A stretch of DNA of 33,688 nt from Parcubacteria bacterium DG_74_1 (GTDB lineage: Bacteria; Patescibacteriota; Minisyncoccia; Minisyncoccales; DG-74-1): assembly GCA_001303125.1 (NCBI GenBank), contig LJNE01000004.1, forward strand, positions 1 through 33,688, read 5' to 3'. Positions within the stretch are counted from its first letter, which is position 1; each line of letters starts with the position of its first letter. A program made the translations under genes and the position numbers. Shown here in pieces: positions 1 to 33,559 of this stretch. The notes under the pieces were generated by a model. That model was not told the DNA's origin and searched no databases. It saw nothing but the letters and a program-made list of their open reading frames with translations.

Positions 1-1
1 G

Positions 2-76
2 GTAACAAATTTAGAAGAAGAGCTGAAGACTATAAAGGCCCGAATTTCCGAACTTAAAGGACAAAATAAAAAATAA
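2..76 (+). CDS. 3' end of an upstream gene, likely the coiled-coil tail of a DUF5320-family protein (partial)
   Basis: Frame 2 reads VTNLEEELKTIKARISELKGQNKK* with TAA at 74-76, 1 nt before the next ATG. The tail resembles DUF5320 proteins, which neighbour NifX/DUF134 genes. Confidence 0.5.
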   Translation, partial: VTNLEEELKTIKARISELKGQNKK

Positions 77-77
77 A

Positions 78-416
78 ATGAAAGTAGCCATAAGTTCAAC
101 AGGCGAAAAAGTTACGGACAATGTTAGCGAAGTATTCGCAAGGTGTCCTTATTTTGTTGTTGCCGAGATTGAGAACGAAAAAATTCAAACAACAGAAATT
201 ATAGAAAATAAAATCGCAAATCAGTTAGGTCAAGCAGGTATTTCAGCTGCCCAATTAATGGCAGAAAAAGATGTTAAGGCCGTGATTACAAAAAATGTCG
301 GGCCGAGAGCCCTTGACGTATTAAATCAATTTCAGATAGGCGTTTATACTGGAGAAGGTGGTGTGGAGAAGGTTTTGCAAGAATTTATTGACGGGAAACT
401 TAAAAGAATAAATTAA
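78..416 (+). CDS. NifB/NifX (IssA/orange-protein-like) family protein
   Basis: MKVAISS start, FARCPYF motif, G-x-G-I-x-AAQL and VGPRA motifs, 112 aa. Confidence 0.85.
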   Translation: MKVAISSTGEKVTDNVSEVFARCPYFVVAEIENEKIQTTEIIENKIANQLGQAGISAAQLMAEKDVKAVITKNVGPRALDVLNQFQIGVYTGEGGVEKVLQEFIDGKLKRIN

Positions 417-417
417 T

Positions 418-765
418 ATGAAAATAGCGGTTCCGACGGATGAAAAAGGTTCTTTAGATGATAAAGTTGCCTTGCATTTCGGCAGGGCAAATAACTTCTT
501 GATTTATAATACAGAAACGAAAGGTTTCGAAATTTTTCCTAACCCCGAAGTTACAGGGGGAAAAGAATTTCCGCCAGATTTTTTGCATAGTCAAGGAGTA
601 AAAGCAATTATTGTTTTTGCTTTAGGGACATTGGCTCATCAGAAATTCAAAAACTATGCTATTAAAATGTATAAGGCAATCCAGGGCACCATTGCTGATA
701 ATCTACAAAAATTTGGAGATGGTAAATTACAGGAGCTGAAAGAAGAAGATGTAGACGTATTTTAA
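418..765 (+). CDS. Second NifB/NifX family protein
   Basis: MKIAVPT start, HFGRA motif, 115 aa. Confidence 0.85.
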   Translation: MKIAVPTDEKGSLDDKVALHFGRANNFLIYNTETKGFEIFPNPEVTGGKEFPPDFLHSQGVKAIIVFALGTLAHQKFKNYAIKMYKAIQGTIADNLQKFGDGKLQELKEEDVDVF

Positions 766-770
766 TTTTT

Positions 771-1964
771 ATGAATCAAAGGTGGATTAAAGAAATTCAA
801 TCAAGGGTTGAAAAAGTACCAATTAGTAGCGGCCGGTCTGATAAAGCCAGCAAGGTTAGTTTTGACGATTTAGTTTTTGTTCCTGCCCAACTGGCTAAGA
901 GACCGGTTGATTATTTCAGGGATGGGATTTCAGCAAAAACAATTATAGGGAAAAATAGTAAGAAGCCCATTGAACTTCAAACTCCGATAATCATTGGGGC
1001 GATGAGTTTCGGCGCCCTTTCCAGAGAGGCGAAAATTGCCTTAGCTAAGGCCTCTGCTTTAGCTGGAACGATAGAAAACACTGGGGAAGGGGGAGTTTTG
1101 CCGGAAGAAAGAGAATTTTCAGATAAGCTGATTATTCAATATTCCACCGGTAGATTTGGTATTACCGAAGAAATCTTGAAAAAAGCAGATGCCATTGAAA
1201 TAAAAATCGGCCAGGGAGCTAAGCCGGGACAAGGAGGTCTTCTTCTTGGAGAAAAAGTAACCAAGGAGATTGCCGAGGTCAGAAACGTTCCCTTGGGCAA
1301 AAATATCGCTTCTCCAGCTTATCATTTGGACATTAAAAATATTGATGATTTAAGGAAAAAAGTTGATTGGCTTAGAGGGCTTGCCGGCGGAGTACCTATT
1401 ATTTTAAAATTAGGGGCAGGGGATATAGAAGCAGATGTAAAACTCGCCGTCAGGGCTAACCCGGACGTAATTGCCATTGATGGCTTGGAAGGCGGAACTG
1501 GTGCTGCACCAGAAGTAATGCTAGTAGAAGTTGGTATTCCCGCTTTAGCTGCCTTGACGAAAGCCAGGCAAGTTTTAGGTAAATTAGGTGCTAAGCAGGA
1601 ATTATGGATAGGAGGAGGATTGAATAAAGGTGGAGATTTTGCCAAAGCTTTAGCCTTAGGAGCAGATGCGGTATTTTGCGCCTTCCCCTTGTTAATTGCT
1701 ATGGGGTGTACTTACTGCCAGCAATGTTATTCGGGTAAGTGTCCCAAAGGAATTACTAGTCAAGATCCAGAATTAAGAAAAAATTTAAATACTGAAGAAG
1801 CTTCCCAAAATGTTGCTAATTTTATTGAAAATTGTACTGAAGAGATAAAAGTGGTAGCCGGAGCCTGCGGAGAAGATAATATTCATAATTTAAACAAAAA
1901 TCATTTGAGAGCTTTAAATTCAGAGATTGCTAAAATAGCCGAGGTAAAATTGTGCTCAGACTAA
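771..1964 (+). CDS. Stand-alone FMN-binding glutamate synthase domain protein (archaeal GltB2-like) with Fe-S motif
   Basis: MSFGALS, NTGEGG, EIKIGQGAKPGQGG, IDGLEGGTGAAP, CTYCQQCYSGKCPKGI; no amidotransferase or GXGXG domain. Confidence 0.9.
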   Translation: MNQRWIKEIQSRVEKVPISSGRSDKASKVSFDDLVFVPAQLAKRPVDYFRDGISAKTIIGKNSKKPIELQTPIIIGAMSFGALSREAKIALAKASALAGTIENTGEGGVLPEEREFSDKLIIQYSTGRFGITEEILKKADAIEIKIGQGAKPGQGGLLLGEKVTKEIAEVRNVPLGKNIASPAYHLDIKNIDDLRKKVDWLRGLAGGVPIILKLGAGDIEADVKLAVRANPDVIAIDGLEGGTGAAPEVMLVEVGIPALAALTKARQVLGKLGAKQELWIGGGLNKGGDFAKALALGADAVFCAFPLLIAMGCTYCQQCYSGKCPKGITSQDPELRKNLNTEEASQNVANFIENCTEEIKVVAGACGEDNIHNLNKNHLRALNSEIAKIAEVKLCSD

Positions 1965-1992
1965 ACAAACAAGAATATTTAGTTAAATATAT

Positions 1993-2607
1993 ATGATAGA
2001 AATAAATCTCACGGATCAAAATTTCGAGCAATTTATTCAAAATTCAGAGAAGCCTGTATTGGTTGATTTTTGGGCCGAGTGGTGCATGCCTTGCTTTGCC
2101 TTAGGTCCAATTTTAGAAAAAGTAGCCCAAGAATATACTGAGAAAATTACCCTTGCCAAGGTTAATTTGGATGTCGCTCCTCAGATTTCCCAGAAATACA
2201 AAATTGAACGAATTCCAACCGTTATCCTGTTTAAGGGCGGGAAACCGATTATTGGATTCATCGGGGTAAGACCCGAGTCCTTAGTAAAAGAATTTTTGGA
2301 CGAAGCACTGAAAAAAGTCTCAGAAGCAGAAATTCCAGAAAATATAGAAGAGATAATAAAGAATTATCAAACATATGCCGAAGAGAACGGGTTTAAGTTA
2401 AATCCGGACAGAGAGACAGTAGAGAGATTACTGAAGGGGTTATTGGCTAATGAAAAAAAGTATGGAGCCAGATATTGTCCCTGTCGTAGAGTGAGCGGTA
2501 ATCGAGAAGAAGATAAGCCAAAAATCTGCCCCTGCCAGTGGCATAAAGAAGAGATTGAAAGAGACGGGCATTGCTTCTGCGGATTATTTGTGAAGAATTC
2601 TTATTAA
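1993..2607 (+). CDS. Thioredoxin fused to ferredoxin:thioredoxin reductase catalytic subunit
   Basis: N-terminal VDFWAEWCMPC...IPT thioredoxin; C-terminal YCPCR...ICPC...GHCFCGLF FTR catalytic-chain motifs. Confidence 0.9.
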   Translation: MIEINLTDQNFEQFIQNSEKPVLVDFWAEWCMPCFALGPILEKVAQEYTEKITLAKVNLDVAPQISQKYKIERIPTVILFKGGKPIIGFIGVRPESLVKEFLDEALKKVSEAEIPENIEEIIKNYQTYAEENGFKLNPDRETVERLLKGLLANEKKYGARYCPCRRVSGNREEDKPKICPCQWHKEEIERDGHCFCGLFVKNSY

Positions 2608-2620
2608 AAAAAATAAAAAG

Positions 2621-3253
2621 GTGAAAATTACTATTGTTTACGATAACACAGCTTTTAGAAAAGACCTGCAGGCTGATTCGGGCTTTTCTGCTTTAATTGA
2701 GGCAAAAAACACCCCTAAGATTTTGTTTGATACCGGAGCCAACGGAAAGACTTTACTAAACAATATGGAAAAATTAGGAATTGACCCTTTGTTGATTGAG
2801 GAAATTTTTATTTCCCATCCTCATCTCGACCATACTGGAGGATTGGCTGATTTTTTGGAAGTAAATTCTCAGATCAAAAAAATCTATGTTCCTTCTACTT
2901 TAGGATTAGCGGATGAAATTATTTTACAAGAACCTCAGAAAATTCACGAAAATATATTTTCCACGGGCGAATTAGAAGATATAGAACAAAGCATAGGAGT
3001 AATAGCCGAAAAGGGAACAGTTTTAATCGTCGGTTGTTCTCATCCATATATGGGAAGTATTTTAAATATCGCTAAGCAGTTCGGTAAACCCCGTGCAGTT
3101 ATTGGGGGAATGCATGGGTTTTCCGCGTTTGAACTATTTAAAGATTTAGAATTAATTTGCCCGACCCACTGCACGCAACACAAAAGCGAACTCAAAGAGC
3201 TGTATCCCCAAAAATATATTGAAGGCGGAGCCGGCAGAATAATTACCCTATGA
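2621..3253 (+). CDS. MBL-fold metallo-hydrolase (COG1237-like)
   Basis: GTG start; LFDTG, SHPHLDHTGG (HxHxDH), GCSH, GGMH, PTHCT. Confidence 0.85.
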   Translation: MKITIVYDNTAFRKDLQADSGFSALIEAKNTPKILFDTGANGKTLLNNMEKLGIDPLLIEEIFISHPHLDHTGGLADFLEVNSQIKKIYVPSTLGLADEIILQEPQKIHENIFSTGELEDIEQSIGVIAEKGTVLIVGCSHPYMGSILNIAKQFGKPRAVIGGMHGFSAFELFKDLELICPTHCTQHKSELKELYPQKYIEGGAGRIITL

Positions 3254-3819
3254 TTACGGAGAAAACAAAGGAAGAGCTCAAAAAGATTAAAAACGATGTT
3301 TTAAATTGTCAAAAATGTCCTCTATATATAGAAAGAGCTAAAAGTAAATTTTACCCGGTGATTGGAGAAGGAAGTTATCAGGCGAGTATAATGTTTGTCG
3401 GAGAAGCTCCGGGACTGAACGAGGCCAAGACGGGCAGGCCTTTTTGCGGGGCAGCCGGTAAGGTATTAGACGAGCTTTTAGAATCTGCTGGCATAAAAAG
3501 AGAAGATGTTTATATTACCAATATTCTGAAAGATAGGCCCCCTGAAAATCGAGACCCGCAGCCAGAAGAAATTAAGGCCTGCACTCCTTATTTGGAGAGA
3601 CAGATTGAGGCAATAAAACCTAAAGTTATTTGTCCTTTGGGCAGATATTCAATGAAATTTTTGATGGAGAAATTTGGATTAGGAAACCAATTAGAAGGTA
3701 TTAGTAAAATTCATGGTAAATTATTTGAGAGCAATAATCTTTTTCAGAAGATTACCATAATACCCTTCTATCATCCAGCTGTAGCTACTTATAATCCAAA
3801 ACATGAAGAGGATTCTTAA
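3250..3819 (+). CDS. Uracil-DNA glycosylase family 4 ([4Fe-4S]); 3' end probably mis-sequenced, true stop near 3852
   Basis: CQKCPL, FVGEAPG, GRPFCGAAG, RPPENRDP, YHPA; ATGA overlap with the upstream gene. Confidence 0.9.
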   Translation: MITEKTKEELKKIKNDVLNCQKCPLYIERAKSKFYPVIGEGSYQASIMFVGEAPGLNEAKTGRPFCGAAGKVLDELLESAGIKREDVYITNILKDRPPENRDPQPEEIKACTPYLERQIEAIKPKVICPLGRYSMKFLMEKFGLGNQLEGISKIHGKLFESNNLFQKITIIPFYHPAVATYNPKHEEDS

Positions 3820-3857
3820 AAGAAGATTTCAAAAATCTTGAAAACAATATAAAAAAT

Positions 3858-4411
3858 ATGGCTATCATCCTACCAAAACAGGTGTGGACCGGAGAAGGAG
3901 AGTTGCTTTTCCAAAAGGTCAGAGAAAAGTGACGGATTTTGAGCAGGCGAGAAAAATAGTAAATTCGTTAAAGAAAACCTTAGAGCGCTACGGTGGAGTA
4001 GGATTGGCCGCTCCTCAAATAGGCATTTCTCAAAGAGTGTTTATTGTGAATATTTCTCCGGATAATAACTACCGTCCGGATCTACCTAAAATTGGTTTCC
4101 GCGCTTTCTTGAATCCGGAAATTTTAGCAGTATCTTCGGAAACTAATTATGATATTGAAGGATGTTTGAGTATCTTTTACGGTACCCTTTATGGACCAGT
4201 AGCCAGAGGAAGTTATGTTAAGCTGAAATATTTGGATGTTAACGGAGAAGAACGGATAGAAGAAATTAATCAACCTTTTTATGCCAGAGTGGCCTTACAC
4301 GAGAATGATCACTTAGATGGCAAGATATTTTTACAGCGGATGAGTCTAGAGAATTTCTCAAAATTATCCTGGAATGAAGATTTAGACATAAGAAACAAAG
4401 GTTTAAAATAA
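3858..4411 (+). CDS. def: Peptide deformylase; apparent +2 frameshift near 3913-3928, likely a sequencing error
   Basis: GVGLAAPQIG, EGCLS, HENDHLDG. ATG 3858 gives MAIILPKQVWTGEGELLFQK in a different frame from the body. Confidence 0.85.
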
Positions 4412-4415
4412 CTTT

Positions 4416-5093
4416 ATGGCAGAACCTATTTTAAAAGTGAGAAATTTAAATGTAGATTTAGGGAAAGAAAAAGTAATTGAAGATTTGGACTTTGACTTAA
4501 ATGAGAAAGAAGTATTAATCATTTTAGGGCCGAATGGAGCCGGGAAAAGCGTTTTATTGCGCACTCTGCTGGGATTACACCAATTCCAGGGCCAAATCCA
4601 GTGGAAGAAAAATACCCACATTGGTTATGTACCGGAAAGTTTTGATGTTTCGCCGGACCTCCCCTTAAGTGTAAAAGAATTTTTTCAGTTTAAGAAAGCT
4701 AGCTTACAAGAGATGTTACAAGCTCTTCGGTGGATAGGCGTAGAAAATTTTTCTAAATTTTTAGAAAAAAGAGTAGGCGCCCTTTCTACTGGACAATTGC
4801 GTCGAGCTATTATTGCCTGGGCCTTAGTTGATAAGCCCGACGTTTTGCTATTAGACGAGCCGATGCTGGGGGTTGATATCCATGGCCGAGAGACTATTTA
4901 TGACACCTTGGTAAAGCTTTGGCAGGAGCAAAACCAGGCAATTATTTTGGTTTCCCACGAGATAGGAGAAGTTGTTAAAAAAGCTGATAAAATTCTGGCT
5001 ATAAACAGAAGAAAACTGTTTTTAGGTCCGCCGGAAAAAGTTATTACTTCTCAAAACCTAGCTAAAATTTATGGAGGAGCAATTTCTCTTTAG
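4416..5093 (+). CDS. Metal (Zn/Mn/Fe) ABC transporter ATP-binding subunit, ZnuC-like
   Basis: GPNGAGKS, IGYVPE, LSTGQ, LLDEP, VSH. Confidence 0.9.
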   Translation: MAEPILKVRNLNVDLGKEKVIEDLDFDLNEKEVLIILGPNGAGKSVLLRTLLGLHQFQGQIQWKKNTHIGYVPESFDVSPDLPLSVKEFFQFKKASLQEMLQALRWIGVENFSKFLEKRVGALSTGQLRRAIIAWALVDKPDVLLLDEPMLGVDIHGRETIYDTLVKLWQEQNQAIILVSHEIGEVVKKADKILAINRRKLFLGPPEKVITSQNLAKIYGGAISL

Positions 5094-5841
5094 TTTAATA
5101 ACAGGAATTTCTATTGGTGGGGTAGCTGGATATTTGGGATCTTTAATGATTACCAAAAGAATGGCTTTGGTGGGTGATGCCTTAGGCCATGTTGCCTTGC
5201 CGGGCGTGGCCTTAGCTTTGATTTATGGTTTTAGCGTTTCTTTAGGGGCTTTTCCGATTTTGCTTCTAGGTATTATTTTAATTTGGCTGTTTGAAATGAG
5301 AACGAAATTACCGATGGAAGCCTTGACTGGCGTTGTTTTTACAGCTTCCGTGGCTATTGCCTTTTTGCTTTTACCGGAGAGCCAGGTTTCTACTGCTTTA
5401 ATTGGCGATATTTCTCAGGTAGGGTTTTGGGACACTCTAGTTTCGCTAATATTCTGTATTGTTACCTGGCTGATTCTGTGGAAGATTTTTTCTAAGATCA
5501 TTTTAGCCAATCTCTCTGAGAATTTAGCCAAAGTAGAGCATGTGAAAGTCGAAAGATATAATTTTGTTTATTTAATCTGTATTGCTATTGTTGTCGCTTT
5601 GGGTATTAAAGTAACTGGCTCTCTGTTAATGGGAGCTATGGTTGTTACTCCAGCAGCGGCGGCTCGCAATTTTGCTCGTAATTTATCTCAATACTCTTAC
5701 GGAGCTTTGATAATTGGTGGCCTGAGTTGCGCTTTGGGGATTTTAGCTTTTAAATTTTTCGCCTTGCCAGCCGGTCCTTTGATTATTCTTGTTGCCACCC
5801 TTCTTTTTTTAATTTCTTTAATTTTTAAAAAATTAACTTAA
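5071..5841 (+). CDS. Metal ABC transporter permease, ZnuB/ABC-3 family
   Basis: RMALVGDALGHVALPG motif, multiple TM segments, PAAAAR. Confidence 0.9.
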   Translation: MEEQFLFSLITGISIGGVAGYLGSLMITKRMALVGDALGHVALPGVALALIYGFSVSLGAFPILLLGIILIWLFEMRTKLPMEALTGVVFTASVAIAFLLLPESQVSTALIGDISQVGFWDTLVSLIFCIVTWLILWKIFSKIILANLSENLAKVEHVKVERYNFVYLICIAIVVALGIKVTGSLLMGAMVVTPAAAARNFARNLSQYSYGALIIGGLSCALGILAFKFFALPAGPLIILVATLLFLISLIFKKLT

Positions 5842-5845
5842 ACAT

Positions 5846-6712
5846 ATGAAGATTGCCATAACCGGAGGAAAAGGCGGAGTGGGGAAATCAATAGTAGCGA
5901 CTTCACTGGCCGTGGAATTTGCCAGTAAAAATAGAACAATATTGATAGATGCGGATGCAGAATGTCCGAACGATCACCTCTTACTCTCCGTAAAAAGAAA
6001 AAAGTATGCCACTATTTATCAGTCAATCCCAAAATTTGATTATAGTAAGTGTAAAAAATGCGGCAGGTGCGCTCTTGCCTGTAAAAAAGAAGCTATTGTT
6101 TGGGTTAAAGGAAAATTTCCGGCTTTTGTAAAAGATGCCTGTATTGGTTGTTTGGCTTGTCAAGCTGCCTGTCCTTATGGCGCCATAAGAGAGACGAAAA
6201 AAGAAATCGGGAAGATTTATACCGGAAAAAACTATAACGTTAATTTAGTTTCCAGCGAACTTAAATTGGGAGAATTGGCTTCTGGAGAGGTGGTTGCCGA
6301 GGTAAGAAAACGCTCAGACGAAATCAATAAAAAAGTAAAGGCTAATATAATGATTATAGATTCTTCGCCAGGAATTGGCTGTCCAGTCATTGCTTCTTTG
6401 GTTGGTACAGATTATATAGTGGCCGTAACCGAGCCGACACCTTCCGCCCTGTTTGACCTGAAAAGGGTTTTGTATCTCGCCAATCACTTCAGGATTAAGC
6501 ACGGAATTGTTGTGAATAAATTCGATCTCACCAAAAAGTTTTATAGAGAAATTGAAAAATTTGCTAAAGAGAAAAAAATCCCAATCCTCAGCAGAATACC
6601 TTACAGAAAAGATTTCGTTACCTCCGTCATAAAAATGAAGCCCGTAGTTAAGATCAACCCGAAATATAAAAAAATGTTTAAAGAGATTATTGATAAAATT
6701 AATATAAAATAA
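5846..6712 (+). CDS. MinD/ParA-like P-loop ATPase with inserted 2x[4Fe-4S] ferredoxin domain (COG1149)
   Basis: GGKGGVGKS, DADAECPN, CKKCGRCALAC, CIGCLACQAACP, DSSPGIGCPV, VTEPT. Confidence 0.9.
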   Translation: MKIAITGGKGGVGKSIVATSLAVEFASKNRTILIDADAECPNDHLLLSVKRKKYATIYQSIPKFDYSKCKKCGRCALACKKEAIVWVKGKFPAFVKDACIGCLACQAACPYGAIRETKKEIGKIYTGKNYNVNLVSSELKLGELASGEVVAEVRKRSDEINKKVKANIMIIDSSPGIGCPVIASLVGTDYIVAVTEPTPSALFDLKRVLYLANHFRIKHGIVVNKFDLTKKFYREIEKFAKEKKIPILSRIPYRKDFVTSVIKMKPVVKINPKYKKMFKEIIDKINIK

Positions 6713-6713
6713 G

Positions 6714-7763
6714 ATGAAAGAAAAAATAGCTTTAATTTCGGTACTAGCAAATTTTGTTTTAGCCGGAGGAAAAATTGCCGTCGGTTTCTTTTCTCATTCT
6801 GCCGCTATCTTGGCAGAAGGACTTCATTCATTTATGGATATTTTCTCCTCAGCGGTCGGCTATATTGGAATCAAAATTTCCAAAAAACCTGAAGACGAAA
6901 AACATCCCTATGGTCATTATAAATTTGAGGTTTTAGCCGGAGTAATTATTACCTTGATTCTTTTAGCAACTGGTCTGGGGATAATGTGGGAAGCCTATAA
7001 GAATTTTTTAGCTCCGGAAAAAATTGAAATTGGCTATTGGGCCCTTGGGGTAATGCTCTTTTCAGCAGCCTTAAACGAAGTGATGGCTCGCTTGAAAATG
7101 CATTTCGGTAAAAAAGAAAACTCCATTGCTCTTTTGTCTGACGGCCTTCATTCGAGGGTTGATGTTTTTGCTTCTCTGACAGTTTTTGTGGGTTTGATTC
7201 TAGCGAGATACTGGATATTTATCGATTCGGCCCTGGCTTTTTTAATTGGCCTTTATATCATCAAAGAATCTTTCTCTTTGGGCAAAGAAGCAATTGATTC
7301 CTTACTTGACGTTTCAGCCGGTGAGGAAATAGAGAAACAGATAAAAACAATTACTGAGACAGAAGGCGTTGAAATGGCTTATTTAAAAACCCAGAAAAAA
7401 GGTTCGGCCGTTACCGCCAACTTGGAAATAAGGTTACCGAACAATTTAAATGTAGAGGAAGCAACCAAAATTTCCAATAGTTTGCGAGAAAAACTTATAA
7501 GAGAGATTGAGAGTCTTCAGTATGTTGTCATTCAAATTACCAGCCACCAAGTAGAAACCGGTTTTTACAAACCTGCTTTTGGTAGGGCTTTTGGCTGGCA
7601 AAGGAGAGGTAGGTTTAGAGGGGCATTTGCCACAGCAACGGGAGGAGGACCGGGCGGTTACTGTATCTGTCCCAAATGCGGTTATAAAATTATCCATCAA
7701 CGCGGCATTCCCTGCTCAAGCCTTACCTGTCCGAAATGTCAAACAAACTTAGTTAGAAAATAA
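6714..7763 (+). CDS. Cation diffusion facilitator (FieF-like) with C-terminal Gly/Arg-rich and Cys-rich extension
   Basis: HSFMD, HPYGHYKFE, HSRVD CDF motifs; tail GPGGYCICPKCG...HQRGIPC...CPKC. Confidence 0.9.
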   Translation: MKEKIALISVLANFVLAGGKIAVGFFSHSAAILAEGLHSFMDIFSSAVGYIGIKISKKPEDEKHPYGHYKFEVLAGVIITLILLATGLGIMWEAYKNFLAPEKIEIGYWALGVMLFSAALNEVMARLKMHFGKKENSIALLSDGLHSRVDVFASLTVFVGLILARYWIFIDSALAFLIGLYIIKESFSLGKEAIDSLLDVSAGEEIEKQIKTITETEGVEMAYLKTQKKGSAVTANLEIRLPNNLNVEEATKISNSLREKLIREIESLQYVVIQITSHQVETGFYKPAFGRAFGWQRRGRFRGAFATATGGGPGGYCICPKCGYKIIHQRGIPCSSLTCPKCQTNLVRK

Positions 7764-7780
7764 TTCGATAAACTTACCAT

Positions 7781-8059
7781 ATGGTCAGACCATTAAAACC
7801 AAGGAGGGTATTATTCGATCCAAGCGTAGTTTATTTCAAGCCCCGAGCTGTACCTCTATCACTGTTAGAAGAAGTTGATTTGAGTATAGACGAGCTTGAA
7901 GCTTTGCGGCTTTGCGACTTGAAAAACTTGGCACAGGTAGAAGCAGCCAAAAAAATGGATATTTCCCAAAGCACTTTCCAGAGGATTCTGACTTCGGCCC
8001 GGCAAAAGGTTGCCCAGGCCCTTACTGAAGGAAGGGCCATAAAAATTAGAAAGAGATAG
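7781..8059 (+). CDS. DUF134 (UPF0251) predicted DNA-binding protein
   Basis: RP-x-KPR, YFKP, DELEALRLCD, Q-x-EAAKKMDISQSTFQRIL-x-SAR-x-K-x-A. Confidence 0.9.
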   Translation: MVRPLKPRRVLFDPSVVYFKPRAVPLSLLEEVDLSIDELEALRLCDLKNLAQVEAAKKMDISQSTFQRILTSARQKVAQALTEGRAIKIRKR

Positions 8060-8090
8060 TCGCTGGCTAGTATCAAATAAAATTTCCTAC

Positions 8091-8119
8091 TTGACAGAGA
8101 TAATCCTTATAGCTTTAAT
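8091..8119 (+). promoter_or_regulatory. Putative sigma70 promoter for ferredoxin
   Basis: TTGACA (8091-8096), 17 nt spacer, TTTAAT (8114-8119); GGAG at 8120-8123 before ATG 8128. Confidence 0.5.
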
Positions 8120-8127
8120 GGAGCAAT

Positions 8128-8313
8128 ATGACCTGTAAGGTTGATAAAGAAAAATGTATTGGTTGCGGTCTTTGTTCCAATCTCTGTTCGGAGGTTTTTG
8201 AATTAACAGGAGATGGCAAGGCAACAGTGAAAGAAGGAGCAGATTTAGAGAAGAACAAAGAATGCGTTAAAGAAGCCAAAGAAAGCTGCCCGGTCGGCGC
8301 GATCGAGGCGTAA
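8128..8313 (+). CDS. Small single-cluster ferredoxin
   Basis: CIGCGLCSNLC ... SCPVGAI, 61 aa. Confidence 0.9.
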   Translation: MTCKVDKEKCIGCGLCSNLCSEVFELTGDGKATVKEGADLEKNKECVKEAKESCPVGAIEA

Positions 8314-8384
8314 TAGCTCTATGTTTTTCCAGGATTAACCAGAAAGAACCACCAATACTTTTTGGGAATTATTTGTTGGATAAT

Positions 8385-8407
8385 AAAATCGCCAGATTGG
8401 CGGTTTT
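8385..8407 (+). terminator. Hairpin / probable intrinsic terminator after ferredoxin
   Basis: AAAATCGCCA-GAT-TGGCGGTTTT. Confidence 0.5.
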
Positions 8408-8424
8408 ATGTTAAGATAAAAAAC

Positions 8425-9144
8425 ATGAAAAAGGTCTTATTAAAGATAGAAAGCCTTTGGTCAAAAGGGGATAGTGGAGAGATCTTGAGAGGAATTAACC
8501 TCAAACTAGGACCTGGTGAGACTCAGGCGCTTTTGGGTCCGAATGCTTCTGGTAAAAGCACTCTCGCCCAGGTAATCTTGGGGAATCCAAAGTATAAAAT
8601 AATTAGAGGGAAAATCTACTTCTTAGGGAAAGATATCACCCGGTTTTCACCGGAAAGAAGAGCAAAACTTGGGATGGCTTTGGTTTGGCAAATGCCGCCC
8701 ACAATAAAAGGCGTGAAATTATCTGCTCTTTTAGAGAAGATTTCAAAAGAAAAGATAGAAACTACTGAAGGAGAAGAACTTTTAGAAAGAGAGATAAACG
8801 TTGATTTTTCAGGCGGGGAGCGAAAAATCTCAGAAATATTACAAACTATTGCCCTAAAACCAAGGTTGGTTATTTTTGATGAAGTAGATTCAGGGTTAGA
8901 TATTAAAAAAATAGAAACTGTCGCAAAGATAATAAAAAGGGAGCTAATTTCGAGAAAAATAGCTATTCTAATAATTACCCATTCTGGGCAAATTTTGAAA
9001 TTTTTAAAGCCCGCCTTTACCAATGTTTTAGTTAAAGGCAGGATTATTTGTAAAGAAAAAAATTATAAAAAAATTTTAAAGGTCATTGCAAAATATGGCT
9101 ATGAAAAATGTAAAAAATGTCCATTTTTGGCAGGTAGACAATAA
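8425..9144 (+). CDS. sufC: SufC-like ABC ATPase of a minimal Fe-S assembly system (SmsC-like)
   Basis: GPNASGKS, FSGGERK, DEVDSGLD, IITH; C-terminal C-X19-C-X2-C. ATG 8425 preferred over TTG 8362. Confidence 0.85.
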   Translation: MKKVLLKIESLWSKGDSGEILRGINLKLGPGETQALLGPNASGKSTLAQVILGNPKYKIIRGKIYFLGKDITRFSPERRAKLGMALVWQMPPTIKGVKLSALLEKISKEKIETTEGEELLEREINVDFSGGERKISEILQTIALKPRLVIFDEVDSGLDIKKIETVAKIIKRELISRKIAILIITHSGQILKFLKPAFTNVLVKGRIICKEKNYKKILKVIAKYGYEKCKKCPFLAGRQ

Positions 9145-10006
9145 GATAAAAAACATTATTCAGGTTCCAGGGAATGTCATTTTGCCCAGTGCTCAAGCTT
9201 GGCGAAAATTTAACTGGGTAAAGAAATATTTTGATAAAGAGCCGAAAGAAGGTTATTTCATTTGGATTAAAAAACAAGTCGATTCTCCACTAGCTACTTG
9301 CATTAACATTGCTTCTCCAAAAGCTTCCCAGAATTTAACAAATTTAATGGTGGTTGAAAAAGGAATAAAGGTTAAATCAAATGTTATCTGTTCGGCGATT
9401 GGAAATAATTTATGTGGCAGTCACAGGGCGAGGGGCAAATTGATTCTTAAAAGCGGAAGTTCTTTAGAATATAATCATTTCCATCAGTGGGGCCAAAATG
9501 ATTTTGTCTCACCTGACTACGAATTTATTTTAGAAAAAAATTCCCGATTAATTTATAATTACAAAAATTCCTTTCCACCCAAAAACCTTCTTTTAAAAAC
9601 AATTATTCAGAGCGGTGAGGGTTCTTCTTCGAACCTAAACCTAGTTATTAATAGTTTGAATTCTAAAGTGGGAATTTTAGAAAATGTCAACCTTTCTGGT
9701 TTAAATTCTCAGGCAGTAATGAAATTGAGATTAGTTGGAAGAGAGAATAGCCAGACTGAAGCTGTTAGCGTAATTTCAGCCAAATCTCCTTCTCGGGGTC
9801 ACTTGGATTGCCAGGGCTTGGTAGTTAGCCCGAAGGCCAAAATGTCTTTAACTCCGAGATTGATTTGTCAAAATAAAGATGCCCAGTTAACCCACGAGGC
9901 TTCGATTGGAAAAATTTCGGAAGAAGAATTGACCTATTTAAGAATGAGGGGATTAACGGAAAAAGAGGCAATTAACCTGATTGTTGCAGGGTTTTTGAAA
10001 ACATGA
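9095..10006 (+). CDS. sufB: Short SufB/SufD-family scaffold (SmsB-like); start 9095 or 9101
   Basis: GHLDCQGL, THEASIGKI, YLRMRGL-x-E-x-EA, IVAGFL. Confidence 0.85.
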   Translation: MAMKNVKNVHFWQVDNKIKNIIQVPGNVILPSAQAWRKFNWVKKYFDKEPKEGYFIWIKKQVDSPLATCINIASPKASQNLTNLMVVEKGIKVKSNVICSAIGNNLCGSHRARGKLILKSGSSLEYNHFHQWGQNDFVSPDYEFILEKNSRLIYNYKNSFPPKNLLLKTIIQSGEGSSSNLNLVINSLNSKVGILENVNLSGLNSQAVMKLRLVGRENSQTEAVSVISAKSPSRGHLDCQGLVVSPKAKMSLTPRLICQNKDAQLTHEASIGKISEEELTYLRMRGLTEKEAINLIVAGFLKT

Positions 10007-11025
10007 ATAAAAAAGTAGCCTGCTTAATGTCGGGTGGTCTGGATTCTTCGGTGGCGGCAGCCCTCTTAAAGAGGGCTGGCTTTAATCTGGTTGGAGTTTT
10101 TCTGAGGCTCGCCGATTTGCCAAACTTTAAAGAGGGCGAAAAAAGAGCTAAAAAAGTTGCTAAAATTCTGAAGATCCCTTTTTTGTTTTTGGATTTGAAG
10201 AAGGAATTCAAGAAAAGAATTATTAATTATTTTTTAGAAGGATATAAAAGAGGAGTTACGCCTAATCCCTGCGTGGTTTGTAATAAAGAAATAAAATTTG
10301 GGCTTTTCTTGAAAAGGGCCTTTAAATTGGACGCCGACTATCTGGCAACCGGGCATTATGTCCGCCTGCGGCAGAGAAAATTATTAAAAGCAAAAGATAA
10401 AGAAAAAGATCAGTCGTATTTTTTGTGGATGTTAACTCAAAAAGAATTAAAAAGAATTTTATTTCCGATAGGAAATTATACCAGAGAGGAAGTTAGAAAT
10501 TTAGCTAAAGAACTTGGGTTGCCCTCCCTTTTAACTACCTCAAAATCAGTGGAAATCTGTTTTATTCCCAAGACCATCGAAGGTTTCTTAAGGGATCATC
10601 TAAAAACAAAAATTGGCCAGATTCTTGATGTCAAAGGAAAGATTCTGGCTGAGCATCAGGGGCTGCCTTTTTACACCATCGGCCAGAGAAAGAGGATTGG
10701 CTTATCCGGCGGGCCTTATTGGGTTTTAGGCAAGGACTTTAAGAAAAATATTTTGATTGTCAGTAAAAACGAAAAAGATTTGTATAAAAAAGAATTAATT
10801 ATTAAGAATATCAACTGGATTTCGGGCAAAGAGCCAAGGTTACCCCTGAAGGCAATGATCAAAATTCGTTATCGCCACCACCTCGCCTTAGCTGTAATAA
10901 GAAAAAATTTAAAACCCGCAACTTACAACCTAAGATTTAGTCGTCCGCAGCGAGCGATAACGCCTGGACAATCGGCAGTTTTTTATAAGGGTAGCGAGCT
11001 TTTAGGCGGCGGGATAATTTGCTAA
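10003..11025 (+). CDS. mnmA: tRNA 2-thiouridine(34) synthase, CxxC+C type
   Basis: MSGGLDSS, TPNPCVVCN, ATGHY, KDQSYFL, EICF, YTIGQR, RAITPGQ. Confidence 0.95.
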   Translation: MNKKVACLMSGGLDSSVAAALLKRAGFNLVGVFLRLADLPNFKEGEKRAKKVAKILKIPFLFLDLKKEFKKRIINYFLEGYKRGVTPNPCVVCNKEIKFGLFLKRAFKLDADYLATGHYVRLRQRKLLKAKDKEKDQSYFLWMLTQKELKRILFPIGNYTREEVRNLAKELGLPSLLTTSKSVEICFIPKTIEGFLRDHLKTKIGQILDVKGKILAEHQGLPFYTIGQRKRIGLSGGPYWVLGKDFKKNILIVSKNEKDLYKKELIIKNINWISGKEPRLPLKAMIKIRYRHHLALAVIRKNLKPATYNLRFSRPQRAITPGQSAVFYKGSELLGGGIIC

Positions 11026-14568: not shown

Positions 14569-15693
14569 ATGATTAGACTAGCTTCAATAATTACGATATT
14601 AATATTTCTGATACTTCCTTCTTTATCGCTGGCGGAAGAAGCTCCCGACCTTTATTTTTTTTGGGCAGAAGGTTGTCCTTTTTGTGAACAACAAAAAGAT
14701 TTTCTAAAGGAAATAGAAGAACAATATCCGAGAATAAATATTCGTCAGTATTCAACAGAAGAGCCCGGGAGTATAAATATTCTGATAAGGCTTGTAGAAG
14801 AGCACCCGGGGTCAGAAAGGTATTTAGGGGCAACCCCTATGACTTTTATCGGAGAAGATTTTTTTGTCGGTTTTAGTTCAGAAATAGGAAACGAAATAGA
14901 GAATTCAATAGAAAAATATTATCAAGAGACTGAGATAGAGAATGAAGAAAAAGATACATTTTATTTGCCGATTCTGGGAAACATAAATCCCGAGAAATGG
15001 CCCTTGGGAGGACTGGCTTTAGTGATAGGGTTAATCGACGGGCTCAATATTTGTTCTCTTGGAGCTTTAATCATAATTCTGATTTTAGTTTTTGCCCTAC
15101 ATTCCCGAAAATTAACTATTTTTTTCGGCGGATTTTTTATTTTTATTACTGCTTTAGTCTACGGTTTTTTGATTTTCATTTGGAATCAGTTATTTTCAGT
15201 CTTCCTTCCCTATATGTCTGCGATGGAAATGATAATTGGTTTAGCTGCTTTCCTTGGCGGGTTCTATTTTTTGAAGCAATTCTTTGATTTCAGAAAACAG
15301 GGGCCGGTTTGCCGGATCGAAGAGAATAAAATAATTAGTTCCCTTACTAAAAAGCTTGAAAATTCTTTTAAGGAGAAAAAGAGCAATTGGGCTTTATTAG
15401 GGGGAGTTATTTTTTTTGCTGCTATGGTTACCATAATTGAATTTCCCTGCTCAGCCGTGTTCCCGATTGTCTTTACTGGAATTTTAGCTCAGGCGAACCT
15501 TTCTATCGTTGCCTCTCTCTTTTATATTTTTATTTACCTGCTTTTTTACATGTTAGACGAAATAGCTGTTTTTTTAATCGCTGTTTTTACCAGAAAAATT
15601 TGGATTAATTCTGGGCCCTTTATGACTTGGATAAGCTTTATAGGCGCCCTGGTCTTATTTTTTATTTCCTATTATTATATTTTTGTTTTATAA
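14569..15693 (+). CDS. Exported glutaredoxin/thioredoxin domain fused to a CcdA/DsbD-like transmembrane domain
   Basis: Signal peptide, FWAEGCPFC, TP-x-TFIG; about 6 TMs with DGLNICS and EFPCS cysteines. Confidence 0.75.
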   Translation: MIRLASIITILIFLILPSLSLAEEAPDLYFFWAEGCPFCEQQKDFLKEIEEQYPRINIRQYSTEEPGSINILIRLVEEHPGSERYLGATPMTFIGEDFFVGFSSEIGNEIENSIEKYYQETEIENEEKDTFYLPILGNINPEKWPLGGLALVIGLIDGLNICSLGALIIILILVFALHSRKLTIFFGGFFIFITALVYGFLIFIWNQLFSVFLPYMSAMEMIIGLAAFLGGFYFLKQFFDFRKQGPVCRIEENKIISSLTKKLENSFKEKKSNWALLGGVIFFAAMVTIIEFPCSAVFPIVFTGILAQANLSIVASLFYIFIYLLFYMLDEIAVFLIAVFTRKIWINSGPFMTWISFIGALVLFFISYYYIFVL

Positions 15694-33067: not shown

Positions 33068-33559
33068 ATGATTATTCAAAAAAATAAGTTTCTAGGAGAT
33101 AAATTTAGGAAAAAGGACGAATTTGAGTCCAAGCTTTTAGATTTGGCCAGAGTAGCCCATACTAGGGCCGGGGGAAAAAAATTAAGATTTAGGGCAATAA
33201 TCGTTACCGGAGATAAAGCTGGGAAAGTGGGCGTAGGTGTAGCTTCTGGGTTAGATGTCGCCCAGGCGGTGGAAAAAGCTACTTTTCAGGCAAAGAGAAA
33301 TTTAATTAAAATCCCAATTGTTGAAAATACTATTCCTCACGAAGTAGAGGCCAAATTTGGGCCAGCCCAAATTTTGCTTAGACCTCAAAGAAAAGGCCGG
33401 GGTTTGGTAGCCGGCGGAACAGTAAGAATTATCTGTCAGTTAGCTGGGATAAAAAATATTTCATCTAAGGTTTTAAGTAGAACCGGAAATAAATTAAATA
33501 ACGCTAGAGCAACCATAAAAGCGCTCAAAAAAATCAAATATGCAACTTCACGAAATTAA
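33068..33559 (+). CDS. rpsE: 30S ribosomal protein S5
   Basis: RV-x-x-T-x-x-GG, GD-x-x-GKVG, TIPHEV, G-x-GLVAGG. Confidence 0.97.
   Translation: MIIQKNKFLGDKFRKKDEFESKLLDLARVAHTRAGGKKLRFRAIIVTGDKAGKVGVGVASGLDVAQAVEKATFQAKRNLIKIPIVENTIPHEVEAKFGPAQILLRPQRKGRGLVAGGTVRIICQLAGIKNISSKVLSRTGNKLNNARATIKALKKIKYATSRN

Follow-up and report, generated by a model that had tools for sequence, protein, structure and literature searches.

The 33,688-nt stretch of DNA analysed here, referred to below as the window, is the complete contig C4 (LJNE01000004.1) of the genome of Parcubacteria bacterium DG_74_1 (G000; 584,570 bp in 13 contigs, 91.8% complete). Its first 11 kb, from position 78 to 11025, are filled by 16 open reading frames (ORFs), all on the + strand. 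These include a predicted archaeal-type minimal SUF (SMS) scaffold for iron-sulfur (Fe-S) clusters next to the tRNA thiolation gene mnmA, a set of genes resembling the orange protein (ORP) clusters of anaerobes, and a GltB-like gene beside a gene for a thioredoxin fused to a ferredoxin:thioredoxin reductase domain (Trx-FTR). We put the probability at about 0.55 that this run represents three modules for iron, sulfur and redox supply brought together in a lineage-specific manner, and not one fixed operon. An earlier note on the same DNA had described the run as a self-contained, co-regulated Fe-S island, an interpretation that is partly supported: the idea that iron, sulfur and redox genes are gathered here is partly right, and is strengthened by the only scaffold found in the genome, by domain fusions and by recurrent neighbourhoods, while the whole is best read as a mosaic of three modules. 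The comparison set throughout consists of G000 and 40 relatives of its order (41 genomes), among which G001 belongs to the same genus.

A single recognisable Fe-S scaffold

The four genes that close the block on its 3' side are the following:

8128-8313, + strand: ferredoxin (Fd), single [4Fe-4S] (PF13370, 61.2 bits)
8425-9144, + strand: SmsC-type SufC ATPase (TIGR01978, 189.1 bits, cut-off 212.8)
9086-10006, + strand: SmsB-type short SufB/D-core protein, at most 306 aa (PF01458, 88.5 bits)
10003-11025, + strand: MnmA, tRNA 2-thiouridine(34) synthase of the C-type (NF001138, 373.3 bits, cut-off 284)

The longest ORF of the SufC gene starts at a TTG at position 8362, and its likely start is the ATG at 8425. 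The C-terminal region of the protein contains the arrangement C-x19-C-x2-C (Cys209, 229 and 232), and an alignment of 19 homologues, picked from the best 120 of 3,706 matches, shows no variation at the three cysteines. They match C218, C239 and C242 of Methanocaldococcus jannaschii SmsC, which are described as its [4Fe-4S] ligands, in a C-terminal region described there as having no counterpart in SufC (PMC12192291). Searches of known structures with the SmsB protein returned 4dn7 (3.9e-32), the SmsB MJ0034 (1.8e-15), SufB (about 1e-12) and SufD (7e-5), which places it closer to the archaeal structures (SufB*/SmsB) than to those of SufB and SufD. Judged by sequence, SufC and the SufB-like protein are predicted to make up a minimal SUF (SMS) scaffold of the archaeal type. 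For systems of this kind, also called minimal SufB*C, the use of sulfide and an occurrence in anaerobic archaea and some anaerobic bacteria have been described (PMC12192291; bioRxiv 2024.03.20.586028). MnmA, in turn, has the PP-loop motif SGGxDS and a CxxC with a downstream Cys, and lacks the N-terminal CC motif. The C-type enzymes are defined by CxxC...C, and a variant without the N-terminal CC motif has been mentioned (PMC7025502), so that the protein of G000 is predicted to be an Fe-S-dependent C-type MnmA of the CC-less variant.

Whole-genome family searches in G000 found no second SUFBD gene, no IscU/NifU_N, no A-type carrier (Fe-S_biosyn family), no class-V cysteine desulfurase and no Mrp/ParA-type protein besides the COG1149 ATPase treated below. 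Because these searches gave none elsewhere, the only recognisable Fe-S scaffold of G000 lies in the block. The smsC-smsB pair is likewise without SufD and SufS in this genome, in searches that did not include SufE. Three Aminotran_5 matches were considered as desulfurases and rejected, as they are DegT-family sugar aminotransferases. The earlier note had named a full ISC or SUF system elsewhere in the genome as evidence that would speak against its proposal, and none was found in the 91.8% complete assembly.

Fe-S motifs are present in 7 of the 16 block proteins. Clients encoded elsewhere were searched for through three families (Radical_SAM, Fer4_7 and HhH-GPD), and the five that were found are a lower bound: a MiaB-like methylthiotransferase, an AmmeMemoRadiSam protein, NrdG (its gene beside that of NrdD), an Elp3-like protein and an FpoF/FrhB-like Fer4 protein. 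The HhH-GPD search gave no glycosylase in G000. Of the 12 Fe-S proteins identified in this way, seven are encoded within 11 kb, 2% of the genome length. At least five clients on other contigs contradict the idea of a self-contained set.

Three further observations concern tRNA modification and the mnmA neighbourhood. The Elp3-like protein (G000 C13:53436-54986, L010 1137-2687) is a full-length Elp3-type radical SAM/GNAT tRNA U34 enzyme (TIGR01211, 542.6 bits), and its occurrence alongside MnmA hints at an archaeal or eukaryote-style wobble-uridine pathway. In the relative G033, MnmA (L013 2900-4222) has 440 aa, with about 90 extra N-terminal residues, and a gene for a free ATP-cone protein (L013 748-1035) is located directly upstream of smsC. 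The mnmA match of the single-contig genome G034 (C1:347491-348086) contains in-frame stop codons, two TGA and three TAA in one piece and one TAG in another, and is possibly a pseudogene.

Alternation of SMS and ISC upstream of mnmA

Across the 41 genomes, SMS and ISC are almost mutually exclusive. A SUFBD core of any type is present in 14 of them, as the short SmsB type in 12 and as canonical SufB with SufS in two, while a class-V desulfurase (E<=1e-20) and NifU_N are found in 25 genomes each. The desulfurase is present in 22 of the 27 genomes without SUFBD, and among the 12 SmsB genomes only G003 has desulfurase or IscU matches. In that genome (C30:6699-6939, C26:2462-3426, C97) the desulfurase is split over two frames, SmsCB is located on another contig, and all that is left of IscU between Fd and mnmA is a pair of fragments interrupted by stop codons. 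This has the appearance of a transitional state, but the bin, of 1.0 Mb with 5% contamination, needs care. In an even sample of the whole class, the short SmsB type was found in 4 of 121 genomes and canonical SufBD in 22 of 121.

Both systems favour the same position. In half of the SmsB genomes (6 of 12) SmsB directly adjoins mnmA, and IscS-IscU does so in 11 of the 22 ISC-only genomes. The two members of the genus allow a direct comparison. On contig C7 of G001 the order is Trx-FTR, uracil-DNA glycosylase (UDG), peptide deformylase (PDF), ZIP, Fd, ArsR, IscS, IscU, MnmA and MFP, whereas in G000 it is PDF, [ZnuCB, COG1149, CDF, DUF134], Fd, SmsC, SmsB, MnmA and MFP. The flanking genes show 87% DNA identity for Fd and 81% for mnmA, and the slot between them is occupied by ArsR-IscS-IscU in G001 (where Fd precedes ArsR-IscS-IscU-MnmA) and by SmsCB in G000. 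We infer from these patterns that the position 5' of mnmA is taken by the one Fe-S system, SMS or ISC, that a genome possesses, and that the system has been exchanged between close relatives.

Not every genome has one or the other. SUFBD core, class-V desulfurase (E<=1e-20) and NifU_N were all searched for and not found in G005, G018, G025 and G030 (85%, 94%, 87% and 100% complete, respectively). Three of these genomes (G005, G018 and G030) encode the complete ORP-like/CDF::NifX module described in the next section.

The ORP-like bracket and its domain fusions

Seven genes of the block belong to the ORP-like set or to the metal transport genes associated with it:

78-416, + strand: NifX-like protein 1 (NifX1), 112 aa, one Cys (PF02579, 70.6 bits)
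418-765, + strand: NifX-like protein 2 (NifX2), 115 aa, no Cys (PF02579, 64.4 bits)
4416-5093, + strand: ZnuC-like ATPase of a metal ABC importer (NF007090, 145 bits, under the cut-off of 306)
5071-5841, + strand: ABC-3 metal importer permease, ZnuB/SloB/AztB-like (PF00950, 155.1 bits)
5846-6712, + strand: COG1149-type P-loop ATPase, 288 aa, Orp3/Orp4-like (CbiA, ParA and Fer4 families)
6714-7763, + strand: CDF transporter, MamM/MamB/MntE/FieF-like (TIGR01297, 235.7 bits)
7781-8059, + strand: DUF134 helix-turn-helix protein, presumed regulator (PF02001, 88.3 bits)

NifX1 and NifX2 are the only PF02579 genes of G000, and NifX1 weakly matches the Di-Nase end of MrpORP (37.9 bits). The COG1149 protein, the sole ParA/Mrp-type match in the genome, carries an inserted 2x[4Fe-4S] ferredoxin domain with two Fer4 motifs. 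The transport proteins are less closely defined: the NCBIfam matches of the permease are all under the cut-offs (106 bits against 284 for ZnuB), as are those of the CDF protein to the MamM, MamB, MntE and FieF models.

COG1149 homologues are found in 14 of the 40 relatives (E<=1e-50), NifX-like genes in 20 of the 41 genomes and DUF134 in 24. At least 12 relatives show the order NifX ... COG1149-(CDF)-DUF134, and DUF134 is located directly 3' of COG1149 or CDF in G001, G005, G011, G012, G013, G018, G030, G032, G033, G036, G037 and G038. The recurrent arrangement can be described as a bracket, composed of NifX, a second NifX or a CDF::NifX fusion, often a second COG1149, then COG1149, sometimes CDF, and DUF134, the ends of which enclose variable cargo genes. 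In G000 the cargo consists of the GltB-like gene, Trx-FTR, an MBL-fold gene, family-4 UDG (UDG4), PDF and ZnuCB. That of G033 includes Trx-FTR, UDG4 and ZnuCB, the genes for SmsCB-MnmA and DUF5320 being located a short way 5' of it; that of G030, thioredoxin (Trx), a CMD/AhpD-like gene, MBL, UDG4 and ZnuCB; and that of G010, Fd, Trx-FTR, SmsCB and UDG4. The brackets of G001, G011 and G013 are compact and cargo-free.

Several of the bracket proteins are fused to one another. A CDF transporter with a C-terminal Nitro_FeMo-Co domain (CDF::NifX) is encoded in 12 relatives: G033 (the reference fusion, L013 5517-6758), G005, G010, G012, G014, G016, G018, G022, G030, G032, G036 and G038. Full-length matches are found in nine of them, the gene of G036 being split over two contig ends and those of G010 and G014 being divergent. 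The architecture is common among Parcubacteria-labelled metagenome proteins, where it is annotated merely as CDF transporters, and the best 120 protein clusters are 64-97% identical to it. NifX-bearing frames of 403-443 aa had been considered as NifX::COG1149 fusions, which was ruled out by Pfam, as it gives CDF::NifX. Relatives with the fusion have one free NifX gene, while two free NifX genes occur in five (G000, G001, G011, G013 and G037) of the seven genomes, G000 included, in which CDF (about 350-377 aa) is not fused to NifX. The CDF of G000 is 38% identical to the CDF::NifX protein of G033 over residues 3-294, and NifX2 corresponds to the domain that is fused onto CDF in other relatives.

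The CDF of G000 has a fusion of its own. Its C-terminal tail (about 7650-7760) is Arg-rich, forms a putative Cys4-ribbon, and is 49-53% identical to free proteins of 78-97 aa encoded in the clusters of G030 (L015 9335-9571, - strand) and G033 (L013 4777-5070, + strand), with E-values of 8e-12 and 4e-13, respectively. In both genomes the gene for the free protein sits between DUF5320 and NifX. Pfam places the ribbon protein in no family and gives only faint DUF5320 and Zn-ribbon matches for it; a relationship of the CDF tail to the DUF5320 protein of G001 was considered and dropped, as there is no similarity (E = 14). These predicted architectures tie CDF, NifX and the Cys4-ribbon protein together.

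Redox and metal-dependent cargo enzymes

The remaining five genes are enclosed by the bracket:

771-1964, + strand: GltB-like FMN domain protein (PF01645, 371.7 bits)
1993-2607, + strand: thioredoxin fused to the FTR catalytic domain (PF00085, 99.1 bits; PF02943, 87 bits)
2621-3253, + strand: small MBL-fold metallo-hydrolase with an HxHxDH motif (PF00753, 38.6 bits)
3250-3819, + strand: family-4 UDG of the Fe-S type, 3' end uncertain (TIGR00758, 207.7 bits, cut-off 125.3)
3884-4411, + strand: peptide deformylase, start uncertain (PF01327, 120.2 bits)

Family searches gave no GATase_2 and no GXGXG match anywhere in G000, and the GltB-like protein, which bears a C-terminal four-Cys motif, is not a complete glutamate synthase because the amidotransferase and GXGXG domains are absent from the genome. 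Its gene is present in 8 of the 41 genomes and adjoins the FTR gene in five of the eight. In G027, G035 and G007, the GltB-FTR pair, or GltB alone, is located directly upstream of SmsCB or IscSU with mnmA. The Trx-FTR fusion contains three CxC pairs, and its FeThRed_B domain is found in 15 of the 41 genomes. As a TrxB-like reductase is also encoded in G000, Trx-FTR is not the sole candidate for a thioredoxin reductase.

The UDG has cysteines at positions 20, 23, 111 and 128, which we take to be its [4Fe-4S] ligands. UDG4 genes are found inside or beside ORP-like genes in G000, G010, G022, G030, G032, G033 and G038, and one adjoins DUF134 in G028; the MBL gene recurs beside UDG4 in G030. The MBL-fold protein is the one gene of the block that the earlier note had left unnamed, all its other family assignments being confirmed by Pfam and NCBIfam.

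Gene junctions, sequence quality and transcription

The 16 co-directional and tightly spaced genes that had been described are real, with 12 of the 15 junctions being overlaps or gaps of at most 28 nt. The three larger gaps are located 5' of PDF (64 nt), Fd (68 nt) and SufC (48 nt, or 111 nt if the gene starts at ATG 8425). The block begins 77 nt from the contig edge, which leaves its left boundary open-ended; contigs from public sequencing runs reach 221 nt farther. All large ORFs up to position 33559 are on the + strand, so that co-directionality is not specific to the block. Downstream on the contig there follow a MacAB-like efflux set, a short-chain dehydrogenase/reductase (SDR) gene and the genes of S12, S7, EF-G, EF-Tu and S10 (ribosomal str and S10 operons). 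A 374-aa ORF without a Pfam match at E<=1e-5 (14569-15693) is located between the MacB-like permease and the SDR.

The junctions at which G000 differs from G001, PDF to ZnuC and DUF134 to Fd to SufC, are bridged by contigs of four public DNA runs, two of which may be the source sample. Because these contigs span the junctions that differ from the congener, the gene arrangement is not an assembly chimera. In contigs of all four runs, one base is absent at each of positions 3798, 3818, 3831, 3913 and 3925. The window thus probably carries five extra bases, which truncate the C-terminus of UDG and the N-terminus of PDF, and these one-base differences make the UDG end and PDF start as read from the window unreliable. 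In G001, where the genes of the two proteins overlap, UDG is 198 aa long and PDF 186 aa. The public runs listed as containing the stretch included no RNA run; the DNA runs that contain it are labelled as marine sediment or seawater metagenomes, a habitat compatible with sulfide use.

Scans for regulatory signals performed at chance level, both for promoters (35 found, 31.0 +/- 6.1 expected) and for terminators (17 found, 12.5 +/- 3.7 expected). One site was identified by eye:

8090-8118, + strand: promoter-like element, -35-like and -10-like hexamers with 17-nt spacing, 5' of the Fd gene

This element is missing from the list of the chance-level promoter scan, and its assignment as a promoter is tentative. 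A repeat search for a shared operator did not find one, returning only short matches of low identity. Between the Fd gene and the likely ATG of smsC (8425), positions 8390-8402 hold a short GC hairpin with a run of T residues 3' of it, which could be a weak terminator or attenuator, although the stem has only 5 bp.

Proposed function and alternative explanations

In the mechanism that we favour, SmsC2B2 would be the sole Fe-S scaffold of the cell. By analogy with M. jannaschii, it would build a [4Fe-4S] cluster on the three cysteines of SmsC, from Fe2+ and free sulfide and in an ATP-gated cycle, with the ferredoxin as its likely reductant. The C-type MnmA would obtain its cluster from SmsC2B2, as it would have to in a genome without a cysteine desulfurase, and would thiolate tRNA U34 with cluster-bound sulfide and not through a persulfide relay. 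The bracket proteins (both NifX, COG1149, a Fe/Mn-type CDF, DUF134 and ZnuCB) probably form one membrane-associated complex for metal or Fe-S handling, which would buffer or pass on iron or iron-sulfide species. The GltB-like FMN/Fe-S oxidoreductase and Trx-FTR may constitute a ferredoxin-linked disulfide-reducing unit, and UDG4, MBL and PDF would ride within the bracket as metal-dependent cargo.

A number of points weigh against this reading. Both scaffold proteins are below the NCBIfam equivalog cut-offs, SufC with 189 bits against 212.8 and SmsB with 72.5 bits against 650 for NF052511 (SmsB), which makes them divergent members. With G000 being 91.8% complete, the absences on which the role of sole scaffold rests are not proof, and MnmA is present in 41 of 41 genomes, whichever Fe-S system accompanies it. 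As NifX1 has one Cys and NifX2 none, classical Cys-ligated carriage of clusters by these proteins is predicted to be unlikely. The metal specificity of ZnuCB and CDF is not assignable from sequence, and a gene for a metal-binding protein is not among the 16 of the block, the remaining genome not having been searched for one. The modules also occur independently of each other (COG1149 in 14 of 40 relatives; SmsB in 12, FTR in 15, GltB-like in 8 and DUF134 in 24 of the 41 genomes), and the ORP-like genes are found with SMS in six genomes, with ISC in seven and with neither in three. G001 divides the block genes between two loci, so that the full order is unconserved even within the genus. Finally, the promoter-like site 5' of Fd, together with the larger gaps at three junctions, speaks for transcription of the block as two or more units.

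A first alternative is that the run is a plain juxtaposition of unrelated small operons in a compact and strand-biased genome of the candidate phyla radiation (CPR), with function and regulation shared only within each sub-operon. We consider this unlikely, though it is the most probable of the alternatives: the co-directional run extends over the entire contig, on into the efflux, str and S10 operons, the congener keeps the genes at two loci, the promoter and terminator scans are at chance level, and PDF, UDG and MBL are housekeeping-type genes. Against it, the block gene families re-associate in different permutations across genomes of several families; UDG4 is recurrently inside or beside ORP-like genes (seven genomes) and next to DUF134 in G028. 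The fusions that link CDF, NifX and the ribbon protein, and the concentration of 7 of the 12 identified Fe-S proteins in 2% of the genome, also speak against it.

A second alternative, slightly less probable still, would restrict Fe-S metabolism to Fd-SmsCB-MnmA and would assign the ORP-like, CDF and ZnuCB part to Zn/Mn/Fe homeostasis, detoxification or a cell-division-linked unit. The nearest named families of the transporters (ZnuC/ZnuB, MntE, FieF and MamB/M), the near absence of Cys from the NifX proteins, and the ZIP transporter and ArsR regulator at the corresponding places in G001 are consistent with it. In addition, the ORP protein of Desulfovibrio is described as binding a Mo/Cu sulfide cluster, and its complex as putatively linked to cell division (PMC6345978). 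This explanation fits less well with the two [4Fe-4S] motifs of COG1149, which is the sole Mrp/ParA-like protein in G000, with the location within the bracket of Fe-S enzymes and, in G010, of SmsCB itself, and with G005, G018 and G030, which have the module and in which no SUFBD, desulfurase or IscU was found.

These three genomes lead to a more far-reaching proposal, which at present appears doubtful: the module formed by CDF, NifX, the Cys4-ribbon protein, COG1149 and DUF134 (with DUF5320) might itself be an autonomous, cysteine-independent route that imports or buffers an inorganic iron-sulfide species and supplies Fe-S clusters from it. If so, anaerobic bacteria of ultra-small size would have another minimal system of Fe-S supply, one that feeds or backs up SMS in G000. 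As SUFBD, desulfurase and IscU were not found in G030, G018 and G005, it would be the sole Fe-S route there, in genomes that encode Fe-S proteins, UDG4 and COG1149 among them.

The weakest explanation is the one put forward in the earlier note, one self-contained and co-regulated Fe-S island with much of the Fe-S proteome, laterally acquired from anaerobic archaea or bacteria, which we regard as very improbable: SMS and ORP-like genes are indeed typical of anaerobic archaea and anaerobes and the short SmsB type is patchy (12/41 in the order, 4/121 in the class sample), but the GC content is flat (0.345-0.413 in the block, 0.337-0.437 in the remainder of the window), gene order is unconserved, five Fe-S clients are encoded elsewhere, no sulfur- or iron-source gene renders the block self-contained, and the closest SufC and CDF homologues among the matches listed are abundant, of similar length and, where named, labelled as Parcubacteria lineages. 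For SufC, the best 119 homologues listed besides its own are 63-88% identical and 217-265 aa long, the few that are named bearing such labels. There is thus no sign of recent import, and composition and nearest homologues point to resident CPR genes. Likewise, the conserved synteny that the island would imply does not extend to the 16-gene order.

Implications

Taken as a whole, the block of 16 genes is a mosaic whose parts are known, and the candidate undescribed system of the earlier note resolves into described kinds (SMS, ORP-like genes, FTR/ferredoxin:disulfide reductase (FDR), C-type MnmA and UDG4). Two leads stand out in it, the swap between SMS and ISC and the CDF-NifX-COG1149 module. 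How Fe-S clusters are built and tRNA is thiolated without a cysteine desulfurase is an open question, so far studied in methanogens, and a bacterium with a 0.58-Mb genome that appears to depend on SMS alone provides a bacterial test case. With G000 and G001, nature offers a swap experiment in which one or the other of two minimal systems proposed as ancestral occupies the same site. The CDF-NifX-ribbon fusions give a testable hypothesis, namely that ORP-like genes form a membrane-linked complex for metal or Fe-S handling, and relatives with the module and without a known scaffold could point to a further Fe-S supply route. In the literature searched, which did not include Garcia et al. 2022, we found neither a Parcubacteria genome described as having SMS for its only system nor an SMS/IscSU exchange at one site beside mnmA. 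The same search returned no paper on Fe-S biogenesis in CPR and no mention of CDF::NifX and CDF::ribbon architectures in ORP-like clusters.

Comparison with known systems

The closest known counterpart of the scaffold is the SMS system of M. jannaschii and other anaerobic archaea (the minimal SufB*C). G000 shares with it the two-gene smsC-smsB unit, the Cys-x(19-20)-CxxC C-terminal region of SmsC, the short SufB/D-core SmsB, and a genome without a detected cysteine desulfurase, SufD or A-type carrier. Unlike the archaeal systems, that of G000 has a bacterial host, both of its proteins score under the NCBIfam cut-offs, and its cluster binding and sulfide use are predictions. The unit is also flanked by Fd and mnmA, at a site where IscS-IscU alternates in relatives. 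In this respect it resembles the iscS-iscU-mnmA clusters of 11 relatives, which likewise have Fe-S or sulfur-mobilising genes immediately upstream of mnmA; the difference is that in G000 SmsCB replaces the desulfurase and the U-type scaffold, and with SmsCB in the place of a desulfurase the sulfur would not be expected to come from a persulfide relay.

From the Desulfovibrio vulgaris ORP/MrpORP system, G000 has counterparts of the MinD-like ATPase with two [4Fe-4S] motifs (Orp3/4-like) and of the single-domain Di-Nase/NifX-like proteins (Orp8-like), together with clustering in anaerobes. Orp5 of the ORP complex is presumably a DUF134 protein. Orp3 and Orp4 are described as MinD-like ATPases with two [4Fe-4S] motifs, and Orp8 as a single-domain Di-Nase (PMC6345978). 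The MrpORP fusion itself is absent in G000, where NF041136 gives partial matches of 34-61 bits against a cut-off of 450. The genes of Desulfovibrio are described as two divergent operons under a sigma-54 enhancer-binding regulator (PMC6345978, PMC4641369), whereas those of G000 are co-directional and none of the 16 encodes an enhancer-binding protein. In place of MrpORP and sigma-54 control, the genomes compared here have a CDF with NifX or a Cys4 ribbon as its fusion partner, in the company of ZnuCB, DUF134, DUF5320 and cargo genes.

IssA of Pyrococcus furiosus, described as a NifX-family thioferrate protein for iron-sulfur storage (PMC5524996, PMC6345978), belongs to the same Pfam family as NifX1 and NifX2 and, as described there, is a precedent for the binding of inorganic Fe-S species without Cys. 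IssA has a cationic tail, and the Arg-rich stretch of G000 is located on the CDF tail and not on NifX. Finally, FTRc-like FDRs are described from archaea and bacteria, Methanosarcina included (PMC6262447), and Trx-FTR agrees with what is described of them in its FeThRed_B domain, in its three CxC pairs and in the electrons that it would be expected to receive from ferredoxin. It differs from them in that the domain of G000 is fused to thioredoxin and is usually encoded beside the GltB-like FMN protein.

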